37,627 nt of DNA from a bacterium (GCA_046331705.1 JAXLQJ010000068.1:1-37627), one strand, 5' to 3'; shown: positions 1 to 18,997, counted from the first letter of the stretch. The notes: generated from the letters alone by a model not told the origin. Made by a program: numbers and translations.

Positions 1-1419
1 GGCGCCGCTCGAGTACGCGTAGAGGATCTCGCTCAGGCCGTGCGGCCCGGCGTTGTTGAGCGACGACACGCCGTAGGGCGCCACCGCCGCCCACGCCGAG
101 TAGCCGAGGATGACGAGCGGGAAGATCAGCACGTAGAGCATCGCGAGCTTCATCTCGCGCGCTTCGATCTTCTTGCCCAGATACTCGGGCGTTCGCCCCA
201 CCATCAGCCCGGCGATGAAGACCGCGAGCAGCGCGTACACCAGCATTCCGTAGAGCCCCGCGCCGACGCCGCCGAACACCACCTCGCCGAGCTGGATGTT
301 GAAGAGCGGCACCAGCCCGCCGAGCGGATTGAAGCTGTCGTGCATGGAATTGACCGCTCCGCACGAGGCGTCCGTCGTGACGACCGCGTAGAGCGCCGAG
401 CTGGCGACGCCGTAGCGGCATTCCTTTCCTTCCAGGTTGCCGACGCTCTGGTCGACCGCCAGCCCTGCCAGCGCGGGATTGGGCTTGGATTCCGCCCAAT
501 ACGCCACGGTGACGCCCACGGCGAAGAGCAATGCCATCGCGCCGAAGAGCGCCCAGCCTTGGCGCTGGTCCTTCGCCATCCGCCCATACGTGTAGGTGAG
601 CCCACCCGGGATCGCGAAGATGAGGAACATCGAGACGAAGTTCGTGAAGGGTGTCGGGTTCTCGAACGGATGCGCGGCGTTGGCGTTGAAGAAGCCACCG
701 CCATTGGTTCCGAGCTGCTTGATCGCCTCTTGCGAAGCCACCGGCCCCATCGCGAGGATCTGCTTGGCGCCCTCGAGCGTGGTCACTTCCCGATACGGCG
801 CGAGGTTCTGGATCACGCCCTGCGACACGAGCACCAGCGCAAAGACGATGGAGAGCGGCAGCAGCACGTAGAGCGTCCCGCGGACGACGTCGACCCAGAA
901 GTTGCCGAGGGTCGTCGGCCCGGCCGGACCCGCGCGGCGCGTCAGCCCGCGCGCCAGCGCCAGCGCCACACCAATGCCCGCTGCTGCCGACATGAAGTTG
1001 TGCCAGGCGAGACCCGCCATCTGGGTCAGGTAGCTCAGCGTCGATTCGCCGGCATACGACTGCCAGTTGGTGTTGGTGGTGAAGCTCACCGCGGTGTTGA
1101 ACGCCAGCGCTTCCCCCACCGCCGGCAACTGCTGCGGATTCCACGGCAGCACGAGCTGCAGGCGCTGGATGCCGTACGTCACGAGCACACCCAGCGCGCT
1201 GAAAGCGAGCAGCGCGAGCGCGTATCCCTGCCAGGACTGCTCGTGGGCCGGGTCGACGCCGCAGAGCTTGTAGAGCGCGCGCTCGATCGGTCCGAGGATC
1301 CGCGGGAGCGGCTGCCGCTCTCCCTCGAACACCCGGAACATGTAGATCCCGAGCGGCTTCGTCACCACGAGGATGACGAGCGAGTAGACGACGATCTGTA
1401 ACCAGCCGTTGGCCGTCAT
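1..1419 (-). CDS. kdpA: Potassium-transporting ATPase subunit KdpA (3' part runs off the window)
   Basis: Manual translation from ATG 1419: [31 protein letters not shown]. Contains [50 protein letters not shown] and [15 protein letters not shown] motifs. Missing from the ORF track because it has no stop in the window. Confidence 0.97.
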
Positions 1420-1458
1420 GCGCGTTTCTCCGGACGACGTATTCTCTGGGCCGCTTGC

Positions 1459-1548
1459 TCAGAACCGCTCGGGGCGGATCAGGGCGTAGACGAGATAGGC
1501 GGTGAGCGCGATCGCGAGGATCCCGCCGAGCGCGTAGTCGAGTGTCAT
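1459..1548 (-). CDS. kdpF: K+-transporting ATPase subunit F (29 aa)
   Basis: MTLDYALGGILAIALTAYLVYALIRPERF has the typical KdpF ending YLxYALxxPERF and lies directly upstream of kdpA. Confidence 0.93.
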   Translation of the reverse strand: MTLDYALGGILAIALTAYLVYALIRPERF

Positions 1549-1582
1549 GGTCGCTGTCCCTTTCTCGTGGCGACGTTCGTGC

Positions 1583-1666
1583 TCACAGCCGATCGCAGAC
1601 ACGCACGTAGCCCCAAGACACGGCGAAGAACGCCACCGTCACGGTGACGAAGACGAGATCGAGCAT
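1583..1666 (-). CDS. 27-aa single-TM kdp-associated peptide
   Basis: MLDLVFVTVTVAFFAVSWGYVRVCDRL. GGAGG lies a few nt upstream of the ATG. Hydrophobic core, same orientation as kdpF. Confidence 0.75.
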   Translation of the reverse strand: MLDLVFVTVTVAFFAVSWGYVRVCDRL

Positions 1667-1694
1667 GTGAGCCTCCGGGCTCGGGTTGGACGAT

Positions 1695-2066
1695 CTAGGG
1701 CGAGGCCGATCCAGCCGGATCGTGAGGTGGCGATCCCACCGGGATGACCTTCGAGATGAGATGAGTGCACTCGGCGGTGCACTCGGGAAGCCAGCTCAGG
1801 ATGGTGGCGCGGTGGCGGCACTCGGCATCGAGGGCCGTCGCCGGGTCGCCCATGCACATGCTCTCGAACGACGCCAGCTCACGCTGGTAGAGCGCAGCGC
1901 GCTCCGCTGCAGGGAGCCGGCGGATGGCGCGCTCCTCGGCGCCGTTCCACCAGAACCAGGCACCCAACACCGCCAGCACGGCAACGACCCAGCCCAGGAC
2001 TCGGCGTGGGTTCAGCTCGAGTGGAGAGGCCGCCTGCTCGACGAGAACTTCGTTGCGCTCGTTCAT
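1695..2066 (-). CDS. Hypothetical single-TM protein with four Cys in the C-terminal domain
   Basis: From ATG 2066: MNERNEVL...VLGWVVAVLAVLGAWFWW...LPAAERAALYQREL...C...C...PECTAEC. The longer ORF-track start (2267) would overlap the promoter and enhancer. Confidence 0.7.
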   Translation of the reverse strand: MNERNEVLVEQAASPLELNPRRVLGWVVAVLAVLGAWFWWNGAEERAIRRLPAAERAALYQRELASFESMCMGDPATALDAECRHRATILSWLPECTAECTHLISKVIPVGSPPHDPAGSASP

Positions 2067-2082
2067 GGTGACCGGTGCAAGG

Positions 2083-2097
2083 GCAATCGCCGTGCCG
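2083..2097 (-). promoter_or_regulatory. Sigma-54 -24/-12 promoter candidate for the kdp arm
   Basis: Minus strand CGGCAC-GGCGA-TTGC versus consensus TGGCAC-N5-TTGC. Confidence 0.75.
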
Positions 2098-2142
2098 CGG
2101 ACGCGGTCGAAAAAGCGCAGTGCGCCCAGGGATTTCAGGCCT

Positions 2143-2195
2143 GCCATCGTGCAGGCTGCACGATGGCGGCCAGGACGTCCGTGCGAGTTGCACGA
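2143..2195. promoter_or_regulatory. Paired palindromic enhancer/operator sites CGTGC-N4-TGCACGA
   Basis: GCCATCGTGCAG-G-CTGCACGATGGC (2143-2167, near-perfect palindrome) and CGTGCGAGTTGCACGA (2180-2195). Cores are 32 bp apart. Confidence 0.7.
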
Positions 2196-2236
2196 GCTCG
2201 GCTCGGCCAGCTCCCCCACCCCCTGGGGATGATTGA

Positions 2237-2668
<432 letters not shown>

Positions 2669-2699
2669 TCGTCGGCGAGACGAGGAACGGAGGGCTCGG

Positions 2700-3650
2700 A
2701 TGCGAGGCAAGACGGGCACAGCGGATTTCGCGTGGATCGCCGCCGGCGCGGGGCTACTGATCGGCTTCGCGCTGACGGCGCTCTACTTTCACGGCGACCG
2801 CAGGCACGCCGCCGAAGCGGCGCAGCGGACGCGAGAGCTCGCGCTCGTCGACCAGCTTCGAATCGACCTGGCGACCTCTTCCGAGGCCGAGAAGAGCGCC
2901 GTGCTCGCGATCAGCGACGAGGACTCACAGCACTTCGCCGATCAGGCGCGAACGGCGCGCGCGGCCGTCGCGCGTGGCCGGGACGAGCTCGCCACGCTGC
3001 TCGGAGGCGCGCACTCCCGCCTGGATGTGCGCGAGCGGCTCACGCAGCTATCCGAGTCCTTCACGACCCTCGAGAAGATCGACGACGAGGTGCTCGGCCT
3101 CGCGGTCAAGAACACCAACCTCAAGGCTTCCCGACTCGCCGCGGGACCGGCCGCCGCCGCGCTCGAGGAGCTGGACGCCGCCCTCGCCCACCTGGAAACG
3201 GACGCAGCCGGCGCGCCCAGCGCACCCGACGCCCTGCAGCGGGTGCGCTGGGCCTCGGATGCCCGGATCCGCGCGCTCAAAGTGCAAGCTCTGCTGCCAC
3301 GCCACATCGCCGAGGAGAGCGACGCCGTGATGGACTCGCTGGAAGCGCGGATGGCCGAAGAGGACCGAGCGCTCGACGCCGACCTCGCGGGCCTCGCTCG
3401 CTTGCGAGCGACGAACGGCAGCCCCGACCTCGAGACCGCATCGAGCGCCTGGGCCCGCTTCGCCGAGATCCGCGGCTCGATCCTCGCGCTCTCGCGCGAG
3501 AACACCAACGTCCGCTCCCTCTCGCTCTCGCTCACCCGCAAGCGCAAGGCTTTGCTGGTGTGCCAGGAAGCGCTGGCCGCGCTTCGGCAGGCCATCGAGG
3601 CCGAGCCCGACGCCAACGCGCCTCGCCCGACGCCCACGCTGCCAAGGTGA
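2700..3650 (+). CDS. Membrane-anchored protein with MCP-type four-helix-bundle-like extracytoplasmic domain
   Basis: N-terminal TM (WIAAGAGLLIGFALTALYF) followed by a long helical region with an internal duplication (LAVKNTNLKA / LSRENTNVRS). No cytoplasmic signalling domain is visible. Confidence 0.75.
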   Translation: MRGKTGTADFAWIAAGAGLLIGFALTALYFHGDRRHAAEAAQRTRELALVDQLRIDLATSSEAEKSAVLAISDEDSQHFADQARTARAAVARGRDELATLLGGAHSRLDVRERLTQLSESFTTLEKIDDEVLGLAVKNTNLKASRLAAGPAAAALEELDAALAHLETDAAGAPSAPDALQRVRWASDARIRALKVQALLPRHIAEESDAVMDSLEARMAEEDRALDADLAGLARLRATNGSPDLETASSAWARFAEIRGSILALSRENTNVRSLSLSLTRKRKALLVCQEALAALRQAIEAEPDANAPRPTPTLPR

Positions 3651-3659
3651 TCCACTTAC

Positions 3660-3708
3660 CATGCAATCTGCCCGGCACTCGGATCACGAATCGTGCGAAC
3701 TGCACGAT
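3660..3708. promoter_or_regulatory. Second pair of CGTGC-N4-TGCACGA enhancer sites
   Basis: ATCGTGCGAACTGCACGAT (3690-3708) and a degenerate copy CATGCAATCTGCCCGG (3660-3675), again 32 bp apart. Confidence 0.65.
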
Positions 3709-3768
3709 GGGCGCTGGCCCCCCGGCGCCGGGTATCCAGAATCCTTCGTGAAATGCGTCGCCCATCCC

Positions 3769-3783
3769 AGGCACGAGATTTGC
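3769..3783 (+). promoter_or_regulatory. Sigma-54 -24/-12 promoter candidate for the APC permease
   Basis: AGGCAC-GAGAT-TTGC. Confidence 0.78.
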
Positions 3784-3839
3784 GCGTTTTCTGCGGCTTC
3801 GCCCGATCGATCCGCTAGCGACGCGTTCCTGGAGATGAG

Positions 3840-5867
3840 ATGCCTGGCCAAGCGGCACCGCCTTCGCACGACAGCTCCACCCCACCCACCGACGAGCCCG
3901 GCCCTCATCGCAACGGCGACTCGTCGTTCTCGCTCCGCCGCCTGGTCGTCGGTGCGCCGCGTGACCTCAGCGACACGTCGATCTTCCATCGGCTCTCGCT
4001 GATCCCGTTCTTGGCCTGGGTCGGCCTGGGCGCCGACGGGCTCTCGTCCTCGGCGTACGGTCCCGAGGAAGCGTTCCGGACCCTCGGCGAGCACACCTAC
4101 CTGGCGCTCGGTCTCGCCGCGCTGACGGCGACCACGGTGTTCATGATCTCGGCGGCCTACAGCCGGATCATCGAGCAGTTCCCCCACGGGGGCGGCGGCT
4201 ACGTCGTCGCCACGAAGCTCTTGGGCGAACGGGTGGGCGTGATCTCGGGCTCGGCGCTCTTGGTCGACTACGTCCTCACCATCACCGTTTCGATCGCCGC
4301 CGCCGGCGACGCGCTCTTCAGCTTCGTTCCCGCGTCCTGGCTGGCGTGGAAACCGGCGCTCGAGATCGGCACGGTCATCGCGCTCACCACGCTCAACATC
4401 CGGGGCGTGAAGGAATCGGTGCTGGTGCTGGCGCCGATCTTCGTCGCCTTCGTGATCACCCACGTGATCTTGATCGCGGTGGGCGTCGGTCGCCACATCC
4501 CCGAGATCCCCCACACCACCCACCAGCTCGCGAGCGACTTCCGCGCGGGATGGTCGACGCTCGGCGCAGGCGGGATGTTGCTGCTCTTCGCGCACGCGTA
4601 CTCGCTCGGCGGCGGCACCTACACCGGGATCGAGGCGGTCTCGAACGGCTTGCAGATCATGCGCGAGCCCAAGGTTCCGACCGCGCGTCGCACCATGCTC
4701 TACATGGCCACCTCGCTCGCCTTCACCGCCACCGGCCTGCTGGTCTGCTACCTGCTCTGGGACGTGCACCACGAGGCCGGCAAGACCATGAACGCGGTGC
4801 TGATCGAGAAGGTCACGGCCGGAACGCCGTTCGCGTCCACCATCACCGTCTTCACCCTCATCACCGAGGGCGCGCTGTTGGTGGTCGCGGCGCAGGCGGG
4901 CTTCCTCGACGGTCCACGGGTGCTCGCGAACATGGCCGTCGACTCGTGGGTGCCGCGACGCTTCGCCGCGGTGTCCGAGCGGCTCACCACCCAGGACGGC
5001 ATCGTGCTGATGGGCACCGCGGCGCTGGGGGCGCTGCTCTACACCCACGGCAGCGTGAGCCGGCTGGTGGTCATGTACTCCATCAACGTGTTCCTGACGT
5101 TCTCGCTGTCGATGTTCGGGATGCTGAAGCTGTGGTGGCAGCATCCCCCCCAGAAGGTCGGGCGCAAGCGCAGCCTGCTCCTCTTCGGCTCGAGCTTCCT
5201 CCTGTGCGCGACGATCCTCGTCATCACCGTGATGGAGAAGTTCCGCGAGGGCGGCTGGATCACGCTCTTCGTGACCACCCTGCTGGTGCTGCTGTGCTAT
5301 TGGATCCGCGGCCACTATCGGGATCTCTGGAAGGTCGTCGAGGATCTCTTCGCCTCGCTCCGCGACCTACCCGCCTCCGGCCGCGGCAAGCCGGCGGCTC
5401 CCGATCCCAACCGCCCCACCGCCGCCGTGCTGGTGGCGAGCTTCGGTGGTCTCGGCCTGCACACCGTGCTCAACCTGTTTCGCGCGTTCCCGGGGCACTT
5501 CGAGAACCTGGTGTTCATCTCGGTGGGCGTGGTCGACTCGGGCGCGTTCAAGGGCGAGGACACGGTGACCGCCCTCGAGGAGCGCACCCGCGGCAACCTT
5601 CAGCAATACGTCGACTTCGCCGAGCGCATCGGCATGCCGGCGACCTACCGGTTCGCCGTCGGCATCGATCCCGTGGAGGAGGCCGAGAAGCTCTGTCTGC
5701 GAGTGCTCGACGAGTTCCCCAAGACCGTGTTCTTCGCCGGAAAAGTGATCTTCCGCCGCGAGCGCTGGTACCAGCGCATCCTGCACAACGAGACCGCGCT
5801 CGCGCTGCAGAAGCGGCTGCAATGGGACGGTCACACGATGGTGATCATCCCCGCGCGAATCAGCTGA
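3840..5867 (+). CDS. APC-family permease, KimA/YdaO-like K+ transporter
   Basis: GADGLSSSAYGPEE, FPHGGGGYVVA, ALLVDYVLTITVS and YTGIEAVSNG motifs. Many TM segments plus a soluble C-terminal domain. GGAG upstream of the start. Confidence 0.88.
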   Translation: MPGQAAPPSHDSSTPPTDEPGPHRNGDSSFSLRRLVVGAPRDLSDTSIFHRLSLIPFLAWVGLGADGLSSSAYGPEEAFRTLGEHTYLALGLAALTATTVFMISAAYSRIIEQFPHGGGGYVVATKLLGERVGVISGSALLVDYVLTITVSIAAAGDALFSFVPASWLAWKPALEIGTVIALTTLNIRGVKESVLVLAPIFVAFVITHVILIAVGVGRHIPEIPHTTHQLASDFRAGWSTLGAGGMLLLFAHAYSLGGGTYTGIEAVSNGLQIMREPKVPTARRTMLYMATSLAFTATGLLVCYLLWDVHHEAGKTMNAVLIEKVTAGTPFASTITVFTLITEGALLVVAAQAGFLDGPRVLANMAVDSWVPRRFAAVSERLTTQDGIVLMGTAALGALLYTHGSVSRLVVMYSINVFLTFSLSMFGMLKLWWQHPPQKVGRKRSLLLFGSSFLLCATILVITVMEKFREGGWITLFVTTLLVLLCYWIRGHYRDLWKVVEDLFASLRDLPASGRGKPAAPDPNRPTAAVLVASFGGLGLHTVLNLFRAFPGHFENLVFISVGVVDSGAFKGEDTVTALEERTRGNLQQYVDFAERIGMPATYRFAVGIDPVEEAEKLCLRVLDEFPKTVFFAGKVIFRRERWYQRILHNETALALQKRLQWDGHTMVIIPARIS

Positions 5868-5883
5868 GAGCCGCCGAGCGGGC

Positions 5884-7575
5884 TCAATCGTAGTCCTCGT
5901 CGAGGGCCTCGAGGAACGCGACCAGCGGCGGGACATCGTCCGCGGTGAGCTCGATGGCGGCGAGCTCGGCCGCGCCGTTTCGCACCTCGCCCGCGCGGGC
6001 CAGCTCGGAGAAGCGACGGTAGTGCGCGATCACCTCTGCGCGGGTGTCCTTCGAGCCGTCGTGGAAGTACGGACCGGATTGTCCGAGGTCGCGCAGCACC
6101 GGAGTCTTGAAGAGCCCGACGGAGAGCGCGAGCAGCTCCGCGGGGTCCATCGCGAGCTCCGCCGCCCGGTGCGACGCGCGGCGAACGAGCGTCGCGAGCG
6201 CCGGCTGTGGTCGCGGCACGCTCGGATTCGCAACGACGTTCCAGGCGCCGAGATCCGCGCGCTCGGGATGGCCGAGATCGGGAATCGCCAGGAACGGGCC
6301 CGCCGCCCGCGGGTGCGCCGCCGAGGGTGGAAGCCAGCGATCGGGATCGGCGTCGCGCTCCGCGAGCGTCGGGACCGCGAGCCGCGCGAACACGCCCGCG
6401 CCGTGAACCGAGTCGTAGGCCTCCTGCGAGACGCCGACGTTGTGCATGCCGAAGTCCGAGAACTCCGGCGGAGCGTGGCATGCCAAGCAGTTCCCGGTGC
6501 CGCGGGAGCGGCTCGGCAGACGCGGCGACGGATTCGTCGCCGGCGCGTCCGCCTCCGACAAGAAGACCAGCAGCCCATCGAGCTCGCTGGGGCCGAAGAC
6601 GAAACCGTGCCCGTGGAGCTCGAGCTCGCCATCGGCGCCGTCGCGCACCCACACCGGCTCGCGCAGCTGGGCAAGCGCCGCGCGCAGTCGGCGCGCGTAG
6701 GCGATCGCCGACTCGCCTGCGTCGGGACGCGACGGCAGGCGATTCAACGTCACGAACTGGTCGAAGGGCGAGCCATCGAAGTCGCCGGTACGCAGATCGC
6801 GCGAGAAGCGCAGCCCGTCGAGGTACGACTCCACGAGACCGACGGCGGCCGACACCAGCTCGTCGTCGCTTGCGGTCGACACGTCGAGACGCCGGTCGGC
6901 GCCCAGGCGCAACTCGGGCGGAATCGCCGGATCCGTCCCGGCGAGCAAGGTCGCGTAGGAGAACCCGCCGAACTGGGCGGCGAGCGTGCCGTTGCCATCG
7001 TCGCCGCGAACCACCGCGGCGATCTGGCGGCGTGCGGCGGCGTGCTCCTCGGGCAACCAGCCCAGATTGCGGCCGGTCCAGGTGCCCTCGATCAAGTCCG
7101 CCGTGGTCGCGAACTCGCCGTCGAAGTGCAGCACGAACGGCACCTCGCGCTCGACCGTCGCGTCGACCAGCGACGGTGCGTTGCGGGGCGTGCGCGTTCG
7201 CCCGTCGTCGCGCGCGGGAATCGGGCTTTGCCGCGCGAAGTCGGCGTAGGTTCGCGTGCCGCGCCCATCCGGCTCGGGTGAGTCGTCGACCAGGTGGCAG
7301 TTCCGGCAATTCATCGTCGCGCCAGCGAAGGGGCCGGGTCGCGCCGCACCGGTGGTGTCGAGCGAAGCGAGCGCTGGGTCCGCGATCCCTGCGCGATTCA
7401 CGTCGCCCGCCGAGCCGCTGGCGAAGCGTTCCGCGAATCGCCCTTCCAGGAAGAGCCGTTCACCGATCTGGACCTCGGGAGGATCGGGCGGCTCCACCGG
7501 GATCACACGCAGCGGATCGGTCGAGCAGGCGGCGATGAAGACCAGGAATGGCACCAGGACACGAGCACGTTTCAT
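5884..7575 (-). CDS. Di-heme cytochrome c peroxidase/MauG-family lipoprotein
   Basis: Lipobox-like MKRARVLVPFLVFIAAC. Two CxxCH motifs (CRNCH, CLACH), plus GERLF, RNAPSL, LHFDGE and FKTPVLRDL...PYFHDGS. Confidence 0.9.
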   Translation of the reverse strand: MKRARVLVPFLVFIAACSTDPLRVIPVEPPDPPEVQIGERLFLEGRFAERFASGSAGDVNRAGIADPALASLDTTGAARPGPFAGATMNCRNCHLVDDSPEPDGRGTRTYADFARQSPIPARDDGRTRTPRNAPSLVDATVEREVPFVLHFDGEFATTADLIEGTWTGRNLGWLPEEHAAARRQIAAVVRGDDGNGTLAAQFGGFSYATLLAGTDPAIPPELRLGADRRLDVSTASDDELVSAAVGLVESYLDGLRFSRDLRTGDFDGSPFDQFVTLNRLPSRPDAGESAIAYARRLRAALAQLREPVWVRDGADGELELHGHGFVFGPSELDGLLVFLSEADAPATNPSPRLPSRSRGTGNCLACHAPPEFSDFGMHNVGVSQEAYDSVHGAGVFARLAVPTLAERDADPDRWLPPSAAHPRAAGPFLAIPDLGHPERADLGAWNVVANPSVPRPQPALATLVRRASHRAAELAMDPAELLALSVGLFKTPVLRDLGQSGPYFHDGSKDTRAEVIAHYRRFSELARAGEVRNGAAELAAIELTADDVPPLVAFLEALDEDYD

Positions 7576-7671: not shown

Positions 7672-8952
7672 TCAGGGGGCGATGCGTCGAGCGAGCGCGT
7701 GCCACTCGCGCTCGAGCGTCTCGCGGGAGTCAGGATGCGCAATCTCGATGAGCGCCTTGGCGCGCTCGAACAACGACTTGCCGAAGAGATCGGCCACACC
7801 GTGCTCGGTCACCACGTAGTGCACGTGCTGGCGCGTGGTGACCACACCCGCACCCGGGCGGAGCGTGGCGACGATGCGGGAATCGCCCTTCTTGGCGCGG
7901 CTGGTGAGGGCGATGATCGGCTTGCCGCCCTCGGAGAGCGCGGCGCCGCGCATGAAGTCGAGCTGCCCGCCCACCCCCGAGATGATGCGGTGACCGATCG
8001 AGTCGGCGCACACCTGCCCGGTCAGGTCCACCTCCACCGCCGAGTTGATCGCCGTCACCTTGGGGTTGCGCGCGATCGTGGTGGGCCGATTCACGTACGC
8101 GATGTCGAGGAGCACCACCGCGGGATTGTCGTCGATGTAGTCGTAGAGCTTGCGCGAGCCCGTCGCGAAGCCCGCCACCAGCTTGTCGGGGTGGATCTCC
8201 TTGCGCGAGTTGTCGACGGCGCCGCACTCGATCAACGGCAGCACACCGTCCGAGACCATCTCGGTGTGGATGCCGAGGTGCTTGTGGTCCCCGAGCGCGG
8301 CCAGCACGGCGTCCGGCACCGCGCCGATCCCCATCTGCAGCGTGGCGCCGTCCTCGACCAGCCCGGCCACGTTCCTGCCGATGGCGCGCTCCTCTGGGCT
8401 GAGCTTGGTGGGCGGGCTCTCGGGCAACGGCCGATCCACTTCGATTGCGAAATCGATGCGGCTCACGTGGAGGAATCCATCCCCGTGGGTCCGTGGCATG
8501 CGCGTGTTGATCTCCGCCACCACCACGTCCGCGCACTCCGCCGCCGCGATGGCGACGTCCACGCTCGGGCCTAGCGTGACGTAACCGTGCGCATCGGGCG
8601 GCGAGACCTGCAACAGCGCCACGTTGACCGGCCGGCGCCCCTCGCGAAAGAGGCGCGGGATCTCGGAGAGAAACATCGGCACGTAGTCGTTGCGCTCGGT
8701 GCCGACGGTCCTGCGGACGTTGTGCCCCACGAACAGGTTCGCGATGCGAAAGCTCTCCGCGTACTCGGGCCGCGCGTACGCGGCTTCGCCGCTCGTGTGC
8801 AGGTGAGTCAGCTCGACGTCGCGCAGGCGCGGGGCCTGCTCGACCAGCGCCGCCACCAGATCGAGCGGGGTGGCGGCGCCACCGTGAACGAACACACGGT
8901 GGCCGGATTGAACGCACGCGATGGCTTCAGAGGCGGAAAAGAGGCGACGCAT
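7672..8952 (-). CDS. Acetyl-CoA hydrolase/transferase family (4-hydroxybutyrate CoA-transferase-like)
   Basis: DGATLQMGIGAVPDAV, HLGIHTEM, INSAVEVDLTGQVCADS, SGVGGQLDF and VVTEHGVADL motifs. Start could be 8952 or 8967. Confidence 0.93.
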   Translation of the reverse strand: MRRLFSASEAIACVQSGHRVFVHGGAATPLDLVAALVEQAPRLRDVELTHLHTSGEAAYARPEYAESFRIANLFVGHNVRRTVGTERNDYVPMFLSEIPRLFREGRRPVNVALLQVSPPDAHGYVTLGPSVDVAIAAAECADVVVAEINTRMPRTHGDGFLHVSRIDFAIEVDRPLPESPPTKLSPEERAIGRNVAGLVEDGATLQMGIGAVPDAVLAALGDHKHLGIHTEMVSDGVLPLIECGAVDNSRKEIHPDKLVAGFATGSRKLYDYIDDNPAVVLLDIAYVNRPTTIARNPKVTAINSAVEVDLTGQVCADSIGHRIISGVGGQLDFMRGAALSEGGKPIIALTSRAKKGDSRIVATLRPGAGVVTTRQHVHYVVTEHGVADLFGKSLFERAKALIEIAHPDSRETLEREWHALARRIAP

Positions 8953-9071: not shown

Positions 9072-9124
9072 ACGCCGAACCGGTGGGCGCCTGATACTCT
9101 TGGCGCCGATTGGAGACTGGAACG

Positions 9125-9985
9125 GTGAGCGACGGGACGCGCCCGAGAAACGACGACCGCGCCGCGGTGGCGGAGCGGATGCTCCGGCTCTTCGACAAGC
9201 GCGCGGAGATCGAGGCGGTGTGGCTCTTTCCGCCGCGCTCGCGCGGCAGCGCGGGCGCCGCGGGCAGCACCGACCTGGGCGTGCTCTTTCGCGAGGACGC
9301 GACTCCCGCGGACGGCAACGCCTGGCAGGACCGCATGACCCAGGAGCTCGGCCGCGCAGGGGTCGAGCGGCCGCGCGTCGTGCTGCTCGAGCAAGCCGAG
9401 GCGACGCTGCGGCACCGTGCCATCGAGCGCGGCCAGGCGATCTTCTTTCGCGACGCGTTGAAGGTGAAGGAATTCCGCGCCCGCACCTGGATGGAATACG
9501 TCGACCGCGAGGCGCCGATGAGCCAGCGGATCGCGTCGATGCGCGGCGCCGGCGCCAAGCTGAGCGGCGACGCCGGCGGGCACGAGCGCGTCGAGGCCTT
9601 GCGCCAGCACACCGAGCGGATCGGGGCGACGCTGCGTGCGGGCGGGGATCGGTTCGCGACGGATCGCGGCATCCAGGACTCGATCCTCTTCAACCTGTTG
9701 CAGGCCTGCCAGGCGGCGGAGGACCTCTTCGCCGCGTTGCTCGCGCGCACCGGCGAGGGCAGCGAAGACGCCCTCGAGCAGCACGACCCGTTCGAGGCCG
9801 CCATCGAAGGGGGCCTGGTGCCCGTCGATCTGGCCCAGCGCCTCGCCGCCGTGCTCCGGCTGCGCAACGTGGTGCTCTACCGTTACGCCGAGCTCGACCT
9901 CGGGATCGTGCTCAAGCACCTGCCCAACGCCATCGACGCGCTCGACGAGCTTGCCCGGACGTGGGAATCGACCGTCTCGAAATAG
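9125..9985 (+). CDS. Fused MNT (MntA-like nucleotidyltransferase fold) - HEPN (HepT/DUF86-like) protein with degenerate catalytic motifs
   Basis: The N half (AVWLFPPRSRG...STDLGVLF...G.AIFFRD...EYVD) follows the MntA pattern. The C half (LLQACQAAEDL...DPFEAAIEGGLV...LAQRL...RLRNVVLYRYAELD) follows the DUF86 pattern. GTG 9125 follows GGAG; the ORF track starts at 9110. Confidence 0.75.
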   Translation: MSDGTRPRNDDRAAVAERMLRLFDKRAEIEAVWLFPPRSRGSAGAAGSTDLGVLFREDATPADGNAWQDRMTQELGRAGVERPRVVLLEQAEATLRHRAIERGQAIFFRDALKVKEFRARTWMEYVDREAPMSQRIASMRGAGAKLSGDAGGHERVEALRQHTERIGATLRAGGDRFATDRGIQDSILFNLLQACQAAEDLFAALLARTGEGSEDALEQHDPFEAAIEGGLVPVDLAQRLAAVLRLRNVVLYRYAELDLGIVLKHLPNAIDALDELARTWESTVSK

Positions 9986-10014: not shown

Positions 10015-11373
10015 ATGGATACCGCCTACGTCGTCGACACCAGCGTCCTGGTCCACGATCCACGCGCGCTCAACGCCTTCCGCAAGACCACCGTCGCCAT
10101 CCCCATCTTCGTGGTGATGGAGCTCGACGATCTCAAGAACAATCGCCGCTTCGAGGTCGCCGCCGCGGCGCGGGTGGCATCCCGCTTCATCTCGTCGCTG
10201 CGCGAGTTCGGGAATCTCTCGGGCGAGGCCGGCGTCCACCATCCCGACCTCGGCACCACCTTCCACATCATCTCCGACGGCAACGGCGGGCTCGACCACC
10301 TGAGCGAGCGCACCAACGATCGCAGCATGGATCTCCTGATCCTCGCGTCGGCGCTCGCGCTCAAGCAGCGCAACGTCTACAAGCGCGTGGTGCTGATCAG
10401 CAAGGACGTGAACCTCCGCATCCTCGCCGACTTCGAGGGACTGGAAGCCGAGGACTACGAGACCGACCGCGTCCAGCTCAGCGACCTCTACACCGGCTTC
10501 CGCATCCTCGACCGGCGGACCGTGCCCTCCGCGGACGAATGGGGCGACGAGAGCGTGCTCGAGCCGCGCGAGCTAGCCCTCACGGATCTGCACCCCAACG
10601 AGTTCGTGGCGGTTCGCAGCGGTCCCGCCGAGCGCGTGTGGCGCTACCAGGCGACCACCGCGCAGCTCGAGCCGGTGCCGAGCGAGTTCCGCGAGCTGGC
10701 CGACGTGCAGCCGCGCAACATCGAGCAGCGGATGGCGCTCGATCTGCTGCTCGATCCGCGCGTGAAGCTGGTGACGTTGATCGGCAAGGCCGGCACCGGC
10801 AAGACGTTCCTCGCCCTCGCGGCCGCGCTCGCGCAGGTGCAAAAAGGCAAGAAGCGACGCGCCTACGAGCGCATCCTGCTCTCGAAGCCGGTGGTCTCGA
10901 TGGGGCAGGACGTGGGCTACCTGCCCGGCGACTTCGACACCAAGATGCAGCCCTGGATGACGTCGTTCTTCGACAACTTCGACCAGCTCATCGACAGCGA
11001 CAACGGCGCCTCCGGCAAGGGCGCCACGCGCGACTCGAAACACTGGGAATACCTCTTCCACTCGCGTCAGCTCGAGGTCCAGGCCATCCACACCATTCGC
11101 GGACGCTCGATCTCCTCGGCGTTCATGGTCATCGACGAAGCCCAGAACTTGACCCCGCACGAGGTGAAGACCGTCATCACCCGCGCCGCCGACGGCACCA
11201 AGGTCGTGCTCGCCGGCGACCCGTATCAGGTCGACAACCACTTCCTCGACCAGCACTCGAACGGGCTGGTGTACGTGACCGAACGGCTCAAGGGCTCGCC
11301 GATCACCGGCACGGTCTTCTTCTCGCGCGGCGAGCGCAGCGAGCTCGCCGAGCTGGCCGCCACCCAGCTCTGA
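10015..11373 (+). CDS. PIN-PhoH protein (PhoH2/YlaK-like RNase-ATPase)
   Basis: PIN motifs YVVDTSVLVHDP, VVMELDDLK, MDLLIL and LISKDVNLRI. PhoH motifs PRNIEQ, GKAGTGKT, GYLPG, IRGRS, IDEAQN, GDPYQVD and RSELAE. Confidence 0.95.
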   Translation: MDTAYVVDTSVLVHDPRALNAFRKTTVAIPIFVVMELDDLKNNRRFEVAAAARVASRFISSLREFGNLSGEAGVHHPDLGTTFHIISDGNGGLDHLSERTNDRSMDLLILASALALKQRNVYKRVVLISKDVNLRILADFEGLEAEDYETDRVQLSDLYTGFRILDRRTVPSADEWGDESVLEPRELALTDLHPNEFVAVRSGPAERVWRYQATTAQLEPVPSEFRELADVQPRNIEQRMALDLLLDPRVKLVTLIGKAGTGKTFLALAAALAQVQKGKKRRAYERILLSKPVVSMGQDVGYLPGDFDTKMQPWMTSFFDNFDQLIDSDNGASGKGATRDSKHWEYLFHSRQLEVQAIHTIRGRSISSAFMVIDEAQNLTPHEVKTVITRAADGTKVVLAGDPYQVDNHFLDQHSNGLVYVTERLKGSPITGTVFFSRGERSELAELAATQL

Positions 11374-18569: not shown

Positions 18570-18997
18570 CGAGATTCAGCCTGCCGCTGGCCCTGGTCAG
18601 CGATCAGCCAGCTCCAACCCTGTTGTTCGACGGAACTCGATAGTCCGGGGTTACGCTGCGTGCTCGCGGGCTAACTGGGTGGTGGCACCATCGAGCTGGC
18701 CGAGGATTCGTTCGCCGACGCCACGTTACGCCGGAGCCGATCCGAGGACAACCCCGCTATCTGGGCGAGGATAGTTGAGGGTGTGCGAGTGGGGCGGGGC
18801 GCCACCGCGAGCGCACGACCACCTCGCCGGGCGCGCGGCTGGTGCTCGCACGCGGCACCCTCCACCGAACGGTGTGAGGGGGATCTCGCTCGGCTGGCGT
18901 CGGCCGAGTTGCGCGTCGTGGATGGTGGCTCGTACGCGCGAGCCGGCTTGCACGCGACGATTCGAGCCGATGCCTGGGCACCGGGCTTGCCGGGTGC

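Follow-up and report, generated by a model that had tools for sequence, protein, structure and literature searches.

A predicted sigma-54 regulon for potassium uptake with paired palindromic enhancer sites and an AlgB-like candidate activator

Introduction

How a bacterium could place two different potassium importers under one control is the question raised by a stretch of DNA of 37,627 bases, hereafter the window, which is the entire contig C68 of a draft bacterial genome (G000; 8.17 Mb in 118 contigs, 70% G+C). It carries the beginning of a kdp operon, a gene for a PII protein followed by one for a four-helix-bundle (4HB) protein, and a gene for a KimA-like importer (Table 1). Textbook potassium homeostasis relies on the two-component system KdpD/KdpE and on c-di-AMP riboswitches. 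A first-pass annotation of the window had proposed another arrangement, namely that the sigma-54 promoters of the Kdp pump and the KimA-like importer share a palindrome through which a single enhancer-binding protein activates them both. The computational analysis reported here supports this proposal by the uniqueness of the sites, their conservation and a candidate activator. In the resulting reading, to which we assign a probability of about three in four, a single AlgB-like two-component activator would govern a putative sigma-54 regulon for K+ uptake. If correct, this would represent a third logic of K+ homeostasis, in which one AlgB-type activator drives a PII protein together with two importers, one an ATP-driven pump and the other a proton symporter.

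Results

The palindrome CGTGC-N5-GCACG has exactly three copies in the window (2148, 2180 and 3692), where 0.40 were expected; matches with one mismatch occurred at the level of chance (10 found vs 9.16 expected). Across G000 the motif has 58 sites, whereas its extended form TCGTGC-N5-GCACGA occurs only twice in 8.17 Mb, both times at this locus. For the genome scan that the first-pass annotation had suggested, a weight matrix was built exclusively from the eight sites of two genomes of the same genus (G002 and G005) and run over the whole of G000. The three window sites took ranks 1 to 3 (24.6, 22.3 and 21.0 bits, site B scoring best), and the top three sites of the genome are thus those at the K+-uptake locus. 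Strong pairs 30–34 bp apart were restricted to two, both in the window; the only other pair in this range, on contig C15, is weak (30 bp; 8.1 and 6.5 bits). No further regulon member was recovered by the scan of G000, as it gave no other strong pair, and no palindrome site was found upstream of the activator gene described below. The next single matches, C10:187517 and C2:47612, were rejected as regulon sites, both being coding sequence as judged by eye.

The sites are arranged in pairs with a spacing of 32 bp. The earlier description of two palindromes per promoter, 32 bp apart, therefore stands with respect to the spacing and to three strong copies, while the copy at 3660 turned out to be weak. 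This site was nevertheless counted on two grounds, its distance of exactly 32 bp from 3692 and the presence of a strong site at the same place in G002 and G005; since the distal KimA site is strong in these relatives, the 3660 site is regarded as a decayed but real position.

Both −24/−12 elements reported previously, CGGCAC-N5-TTGC on the minus strand (2097-2083) and AGGCAC-N5-TTGC on the plus strand (3769-3783), were found as placed, but the count of two sigma-54 promoters fell short, as a third one, P_PII, had been overlooked. With P_PII included, the 2148/2180 pair sits between two divergent promoters. The three promoters, with GG and GC ten bases apart, differ by one to two mismatches from TGGCAC-N5-TTGC, which we take to be the sigma-54 consensus, and they face gene starts 17–59 bp past the GC. 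The window holds three copies of GGCAC-N5-TTGC, a number attained by 3 of 100 shuffles (0.48 expected), and the relaxed form GGCA[CT]-N5-TTGC was counted 124 times on both strands of the 8.17 Mb. The third exact copy (18977-18990, plus strand) follows closely on the 3' end of a Na/Ca-exchanger gene on the minus strand, to which it is antisense; no palindrome stands nearby, and the copy is probably a chance occurrence.

Measured from the palindrome centre to the leading G of the −24 GG, the proximal and distal sites lie at 59/91 bp from P_kdp and at 71/103 bp from both P_PII and P_kimA. Of the proximal distances given before, 60 and 71 bp, the latter is exact and the former has to be corrected by one base pair; the offset of about one helical turn between kdp and kimA was confirmed (12 bp).

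The motif and its spacing also proved to be conserved at orthologous loci, in three genomes of the same genus as well as in more distant relatives. G002, G005 and G004 have retained the promoters as well as the paired sites with their 32-bp spacing and their distances, while the intervening sequence has diverged. The proximal/distal distances in G002 are 59/91 bp for kdp, 71/103 bp for a PII remnant and 70/102 bp for the KimA-like gene; the corresponding values in G005 are 70/102 bp for kdp and 69/101 bp for the KimA-like gene, with no PII, and in G004, whose contig ends before kdp and PII, 71/103 bp for the KimA-like gene. The promoter of the PII remnant in G002 reads AGGCAC-N5-TTGC, at the same 71/103 distances as in G000, and the P_kimA equivalent of G005 has TCGC in its −12 element. 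The PII and 316-amino-acid (aa) genes are intact in G000 and G004, both present as remnants in G002 and both absent in G005. The G002 remnants lie behind an intact promoter (locus L015, 5290-5600), and the KimA-like gene of this genome matches in three pieces with a frame change near 6942 (L015, 5805-7641); the fragmentation and the remnants reflect either decay or an assembly error. Among the more distant relatives, locus L019, whose activator is 65–66% identical, shows two sites 32 bp apart at 62/94 bp from TGGCAC-N5-TCGC, a two-site design that precedes both a kdpD-kinase-activator operon and kdpA. At loci L021 and L022, TGCA-N3-TGCA-like pairs 31–32 bp apart were read by eye.

With respect to these data it is scarcely credible that the motifs are a product of chance or a non-regulatory repeat and that sigma-70 promoters drive the genes. 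GC-rich palindromes are admittedly common in a genome with 70% G+C, as the 58 genome-wide sites illustrate, but none of 100 shuffles of the window gave three sites, the extended motif is confined to this locus, and position, 32-bp spacing and −24/−12 distance have been conserved while the flanks diverged. Furthermore, a consensus scan of the region found no sigma-70-like promoter.

The remainder of the kdp operon was located on a second contig of G000, C6. Positions 1-88 of the window are identical to C6:22377-22464, and C6:22101-22466 contains the KdpA C-terminus, encoding the last 122 positions of the KdpA profile. After kdpA, C6 carries in order kdpB, kdpC, a gene for a KdpD-N/Usp protein, a histidine kinase gene, a DUF4143 ATPase gene and, convergent to these, an activator gene. 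The KdpD-N/Usp protein (398 aa) matches the KdpD_non_kinase model with an E-value of 8.6e-118, a match below the model's cut-off. The kinase (620 aa) has a 4HB-HAMP-PAS-HisKA-HATPase architecture, and its H-box histidine is present in the alignment; the activator (C6:13188-14549) is a REC-AAA+(GAFTGA)-HTH_8 protein in which the receiver Asp and the Walker A motif are present. The first-pass annotation had advised looking beyond kdpA for an NtrC-like response regulator or a KdpD-like sensor; the activator and the kinase lie on C6 and not in the window. The genome furthermore encodes both partners that the sigma-54 class requires, since rpoN (one Sigma54_DBD match, on contig C7) is present as well as the GAFTGA activator. 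A full-length KdpD kinase was not found near kdp, the one KdpD-domain protein being that which matches the non-kinase model, and none of the seven Trans_reg_C matches, which would indicate an OmpR-type regulator, falls on C68 or C6.

The order kdp to kinase, followed by the convergent activator gene, is found in G000, G001, G002 and G005, that is in all four genomes whose contigs show this part. The gap between kinase and activator genes appears as an insertion spot: in G000 it is occupied by the DUF4143/AAA_14 ATPase gene (C6:14800-16263), in G005 by an insert with an HNH/DUF222 gene, an AAA_21 ATPase gene and a complete type I restriction-modification system (L017:2081-11783).

In order to place the activator, 80 loci with its nearest homologues were taken from a species-representative genome collection. 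Kdp or KimA-like genes stand beside seven of them (L019, L021, L022, L023, L024, L048 and L085), including five of the six loci with at least 53% activator identity; at an eighth, L077, only a 28% KimA-like match is found 8 kb away. The seven loci belong to Myxococcota-labelled metagenome-assembled genomes (MAGs), a planctomycete and a Chlorobiaceae MAG, and at L021 and L048 the KimA-like gene follows directly 3' of the activator gene. In a quick maximum-likelihood tree of 81 rows, which omits L042 and L085 as too short, the G000 activator falls into an eight-row clade with 99% support. Seven of the eight rows are K+-linked; for the eighth, L020, the flank is limited to some 600 bases. AlgB of a Pseudomonas, beside whose gene a KinB_sensor domain is encoded, belongs to the sister clade.

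A recognition helix STL(Y/W)RKRK is common to the G000 activator, the Pseudomonas AlgB locus L026 and their relatives and is missing in more distant homologues. In the six-frame translation of G000 the pattern TL[YWF]RKRK occurs a single time, namely in the C6 activator, although the 49 matches to PF00158 correspond to roughly 45 sigma-54 activator genes. Together with an identity of about 52% to AlgB of Pseudomonas sp. C11 and the sister-clade position, the shared helix identifies AlgB, at the level of sequence, as the closest characterised relative of the G000 activator.

The palindromes point in the same direction. AlgB bound a promoter fragment with two TGCANNNTGCA repeats 20 bp apart, and binding was lost when the repeats were scrambled (PMC12780092, using an AlgB motif from the DNA affinity purification sequencing (DAP-seq) study PMC8599809). 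The palindrome, which the first-pass annotation had not recognised, fits this published site type: at the dimA promoter the two inverted repeats TGCANNNTGCA are spaced by 20 bp, and the repeats here by 21 bp. Two further loci of the AlgB clade (L027:11348-11465 and L029:634-750) have, as read by eye, two TGCA-N3-TGCA-like sites 32 bp apart with a −24/−12 element about 62 bp on. They hold AlgB-clade activator or kinase genes of an Arenimonas MAG and a Deltaproteobacteria-labelled MAG, so that the paired-site design looks like a trait of the AlgB family rather than one specific to K+ genes. In its predicted features the G000 system thus has the REC-AAA+-HTH_8 architecture, the AlgB-type helix and the paired TGCA-N3-TGCA sites of the AlgB-like subfamily. 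Its kinase shares the HAMP-PAS-HisKA-HATPase body with KinB, but the sensor differs, being 4HB_MCP_1 in G000 and KinB_sensor in Pseudomonas. The targets differ as well: those of AlgB in P. aeruginosa are alginate, biofilm, virulence and photo-sensing genes and not K+ uptake.

It is conceivable that the palindromes are occupied by a different protein, either a repressor or another of the approximately 45 sigma-54 activators, for instance a true NtrC in view of the PII gene. In favour of this, the promoters and the activator gene are not neighbours, and the TGCAC core of the palindrome presumably also occurs in NtrC-type sites. The orientation of the half-sites, on the other hand, is reversed relative to what we take to be the NtrC consensus, and the AlgB-type recognition helix is found in one G000 protein only. 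As orthologues of the activator are moreover kdp-linked in four of four genomes, and as site type, two-site spacing and promoter distance match those of L027, L029 and the published AlgB sites, we consider a different binder highly improbable and the C6 protein the candidate for the palindromes.

Discussion

One of the closest known systems is the Kdp system of Desulfovibrio vulgaris Hildenborough (DVU3339.1–DVU3334). There, the GAFTGA sigma-54 response regulator DVU3334 binds upstream of a kdp operon with a split KdpD; its site CGTTACATTTTGTAACG is given at −149 (Table S7) and the sigma-54 promoter at −44 (Table S10) (PMC3333781), and DVU3334 is listed as a GAFTGA regulator of potassium uptake (PMC4641369, Table 1). 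Both systems have kdpFABC behind a sigma-54 promoter, a predicted one in G000 (PMC3333781), a divided KdpD with a KdpD-N/Usp protein on the one hand and a PAS histidine kinase on the other (PMC3333781; PMC4641369) and an NtrC-family GAFTGA response regulator, DVU3334 being compared by its published description. Even the 17-bp palindrome is of the same build (CGTTACA-N3-TGTAACG there, CGTGCA-N3-TGCACG here), although its core is TACA in the former and TGCA in the latter. In D. vulgaris, however, the regulator gene lies inside the operon and one site is located about 105 bp from the promoter, whereas G000 has a convergent, detached activator gene and pairs of sites 32 bp apart at 59–71 bp, and its predicted regulon also includes the KimA-like importer and the PII/4HB operon.

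Consequently, the contrast with model bacteria drawn by the first-pass annotation overstates the novelty: sigma-54 control of kdp is not new, having been mapped in D. vulgaris as early as 2011, together with a split KdpD (PMC3333781; PMC4641369). What found no precedent in our search of the kdp/sigma-54 literature, which did not extend to KimA combined with sigma-54, is one enhancer design serving a KimA-like importer and a PII/4HB operon. Likewise, no precedent for one enhancer pair serving two divergent promoters was met in a search of the kdp/sigma-54/potassium literature.

With E. coli KdpD/KdpE the locus shares the two-component control of kdpFABC and the KdpD N-terminal/Usp module; it differs in that neither a full-length KdpD kinase nor an OmpR-type regulator is found near kdp and in that the predicted promoter is of the sigma-54 rather than the sigma-70 type. 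The KimA-like protein belongs to the same transporter family as Bacillus subtilis KimA (YdaO; 6S3K), but instead of a riboswitch a sigma-54 promoter and an enhancer are predicted here: no Rfam family, the c-di-AMP riboswitch included, was matched in 1-6000 at E-values up to 1. A further model is NtrC at glnAp2, where two dimer sites upstream of a −24/−12 promoter are followed by oligomerisation and looping. The arrangement of two sites on one DNA face upstream of such a promoter is alike, whereas at the present locus the distance from sites to promoter is shorter and the recognition helix and the half-site orientation are not the same.

The mechanism proposed here is as follows. The motifs with their uniqueness and conservation, the gene linkage and the protein domains are read from the sequence, and activator binding, phosphotransfer and transcript starts are inferred. 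Three operons would be involved: the first with the 123-aa open reading frame (ORF), the 27-aa ORF, kdpFABC, the kinase-less KdpD and the histidine kinase, the second with PII and the 316-aa four-helix-bundle protein, and the third with the KimA-like importer. The membrane kinase, encoded last in the kdp operon, presumably phosphorylates the activator, dimers of which would bind two CGTGCA-N3-TGCACG palindromes 32 bp apart; as 32 bp correspond to three helical turns, both palindromes would lie on the same face of the DNA. The activator oligomer is expected to loop the intervening 60–70 bp or so and to spend ATP in opening the sigma-54 closed complex. Located between P_kdp and P_PII, the pair 2147-2195 could serve both promoters, and the pair 3659-3707 would serve P_kimA. 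By analogy to the Desulfovibrio system, the signal is predicted to be low K+. Input to the kinase may come from the kinase-less KdpD, or the latter may act on the pump in the manner of the N-terminal half of E. coli KdpD, which is reported to be a serine kinase braking the pump (PMC11018627).

The wiring could also be as described while the signal is general envelope, osmotic, nitrogen or energy stress, with K+ uptake as one output among others. In favour of such a signal, the regulon includes a canonical PII gene behind a promoter of its own, the sensor of the kinase is a generic 4HB-HAMP-PAS module and not a KdpD sensor, and, in D. vulgaris, two further regulators target the kdp operon, among them the general-stress activator DVU3305 with a TGCA-N3-TGCA-type motif (PMC3333781). 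Two of the three operons encode a K+ importer, though, the kinase-less KdpD shares an operon with the kinase, and in different phyla the nearest homologues of the activator show linkage to Kdp or KimA-like genes. We therefore regard a stress signal as unlikely and low K+ as the probable inducer.

For the PII protein a post-translational action on the KimA-like importer or on the Kdp pump might be imagined, akin to GlnK gating AmtB. PII and the membrane-anchored four-helix-bundle protein of the regulon would then form one module by which K+ uptake is tied to the nitrogen and energy state; we would give this idea little chance. Should PII indeed act on a K+ importer, this would be a class of PII targets not described so far. 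A complex prediction for PII with the KimA-like protein returned a score of 0.00, which is neutral as to binding.

If the proposed regulon holds, it would provide a concrete DNA target for the K+-linked branch of AlgB-like activators, that is CGTGCA-N3-TGCACG twice, 32 bp apart and 60–70 bp from the −24 element, and through the locus the Kdp system of Desulfovibrio would be linked with the type of site known from Pseudomonas AlgB.

Several observations weigh against the single-activator regulon. The distal site at 3660 has two of ten core positions mismatched and scores 8.4 bits vs about 24, and the third-ranked window site (21.0 bits) is closely followed by an apparently intragenic chance match of 20.8 bits. 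The predicted start of P_kdp near 2071 is separated from the ATG at 2066 by no more than about 5 nt. With this ATG 17 nt past the −12 GC, the predicted transcript of the 123-aa ORF would lack a ribosome-binding site and have about 5 nt of leader, so that either the start is mis-set or the first gene is almost leaderless; the tight spacing of promoter and ATG is kept at L015 (~5025-5045, G002), L016 (~7864-7882, G005) and L022 (~9803-9824). The activator gene is located outside the window, and a variable insert separates it from the kinase gene. The window and C6 are connected by an 88-bp identical overlap, after which C6 enters unrelated sequence, and the assembly must therefore be broken or chimeric at this point. 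Finally, the KimA-like gene at L021 has palindromes but no convincing −24/−12 motif was found there, and in G001, which belongs to another genus, a KimA-like gene with 82% identity lies elsewhere, with neither palindrome nor −24/−12 element upstream. The KimA link would consequently be young in the G000 lineage. As the kdp contig of G001 begins inside kdpA, it does not reach the kdp promoter. Beyond the overlap, C6 carries an FAD-binding fragment and an activator-like gene in two frames (C6:24170-24641).

A further point of this kind comes from RNA libraries. In four metatranscriptome runs of three studies (sludge, wastewater), 14 assembled contigs were at least 95% identical to the window within 1704-5440, 13 of them at 99% or more and one at 95–99%; as assembled contigs they allow neither starts nor strand or level to be read. 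They cover pieces of the 123-aa ORF (1704-2052), of PII (2309-2693), of the 316-aa gene and of the start of the KimA-like gene, while 2053-2308 is covered by none. Two of them, X2 (3689-3870) and X1 (3736-3958), bridge the predicted P_kimA start near 3795, which could be due to read-through from upstream or to DNA carry-over. If they represent RNA, at least some of the KimA-like transcripts must be read-through from upstream. The matches indicate that the organism or a near relative was present in the sludge or wastewater samples.

Additional observations

The features of the locus are compiled in Table 1.

Table 1. Genes, predicted promoters and palindromic sites of the K+-uptake locus in window coordinates.
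Feature	Position	Strand	Evidence
kdpA, 472 of ~560 codons, truncated at contig end	1..1419	-	Pfam KdpA, E 8e-203; remainder on G000 contig C6
kdpF, 29 aa	1459..1548	-	Pfam Potass_KdpF, E 2.5e-11
hydrophobic 27-aa ORF, 5' of kdpF	1583..1666	-	conservation by tblastn
123-aa ORF, one-helix, Cys-rich, gene 1 of the kdp arm	1695..2066	-	conservation in relatives
P_kdp, CGGCAC-N5-TTGC; predicted start near 2071	2083..2097	-	motif; kept in G002, G005
site A, perfect 8-1-8 palindrome; 59 bp to P_kdp, 103 bp to P_PII	2147..2163	.	
site B; 71 bp to P_PII, 91 bp to P_kdp; 32 bp from site A	2179..2195	.	
P_PII, AGGCAT-N5-TTGC; predicted start near 2283	2257..2271	+	motif facing PII gene
PII (GlnB/GlnK family) gene, 112 aa	2330..2668	+	Pfam P-II, E 5.7e-31
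316-aa protein, single N-terminal helix and 4HB_MCP-like helical bundle	2700..3650	+	Pfam 4HB_MCP_1, E 1.3e-8
site C' (weak, distal); 103 bp to P_kimA	3659..3675	.	8.4 bits; identical in G004
site C (strong, proximal); 71 bp to P_kimA	3691..3707	.	
P_kimA, AGGCAC-N5-TTGC; predicted start near 3795	3769..3783	+	motif; kept in G002, G004
KimA-like APC-superfamily K+ importer, 675 aa	3840..5867	+	Pfam AA_permease_2; PDB 6S3K

For the 675-aa protein, KimA 6S3K was the sole PDB match (E 1e-53; residues 31-496 and, weakly, 626-668), which justifies the label KimA-like; by its similarity over the membrane and C-terminal domains it is assigned as a putative KimA-type K+/H+ symporter. The PII protein has the T-loop Tyr51 (translation of 2330-2665), and it scores 143.7 and 137.2 bits against the NCBIfam P-II models, under their cut-offs of 202 and 181. 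A homologue of the 316-aa protein with 37% identity is encoded at L019 between the activator gene and kdpA. That this protein is a paralogue of the sensor domain of the kinase was considered and rejected, as there is no significant similarity between the two.

Pfam and NCBIfam searches gave no family match for either of the two small ORFs of the kdp arm. The 27-aa ORF stands at the same place before kdpF in six of six other genomes with 44–81% identity (tblastn), the count comprising seven loci (L015, L016/L017, L019, L022, L023 and L024), of which L016 and L017 overlap in G005. This conservation spans several phyla, and the ORF may encode an unannotated small Kdp-associated peptide. The 123-aa ORF shows 65–67% identity in G002 and G005 and 33% in L022, where it stands apart from kdp behind a −24/−12 motif and a palindrome pair of its own.

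Concerning the origin of the window, order, class and phylum of G000 each comprise the same six genomes in the reference set; the genome represents a very small deep lineage, though its nearest homologues are labelled Myxococcota/Polyangia. Further along the contig, one 291-aa ORF (9110-9985, plus strand) combines a nucleotidyltransferase (Polbeta) domain with a HepT-like RNase domain, which usually form a two-gene toxin-antitoxin pair, and the next gene (10015-11373, plus strand) encodes a PIN-PhoH fusion.

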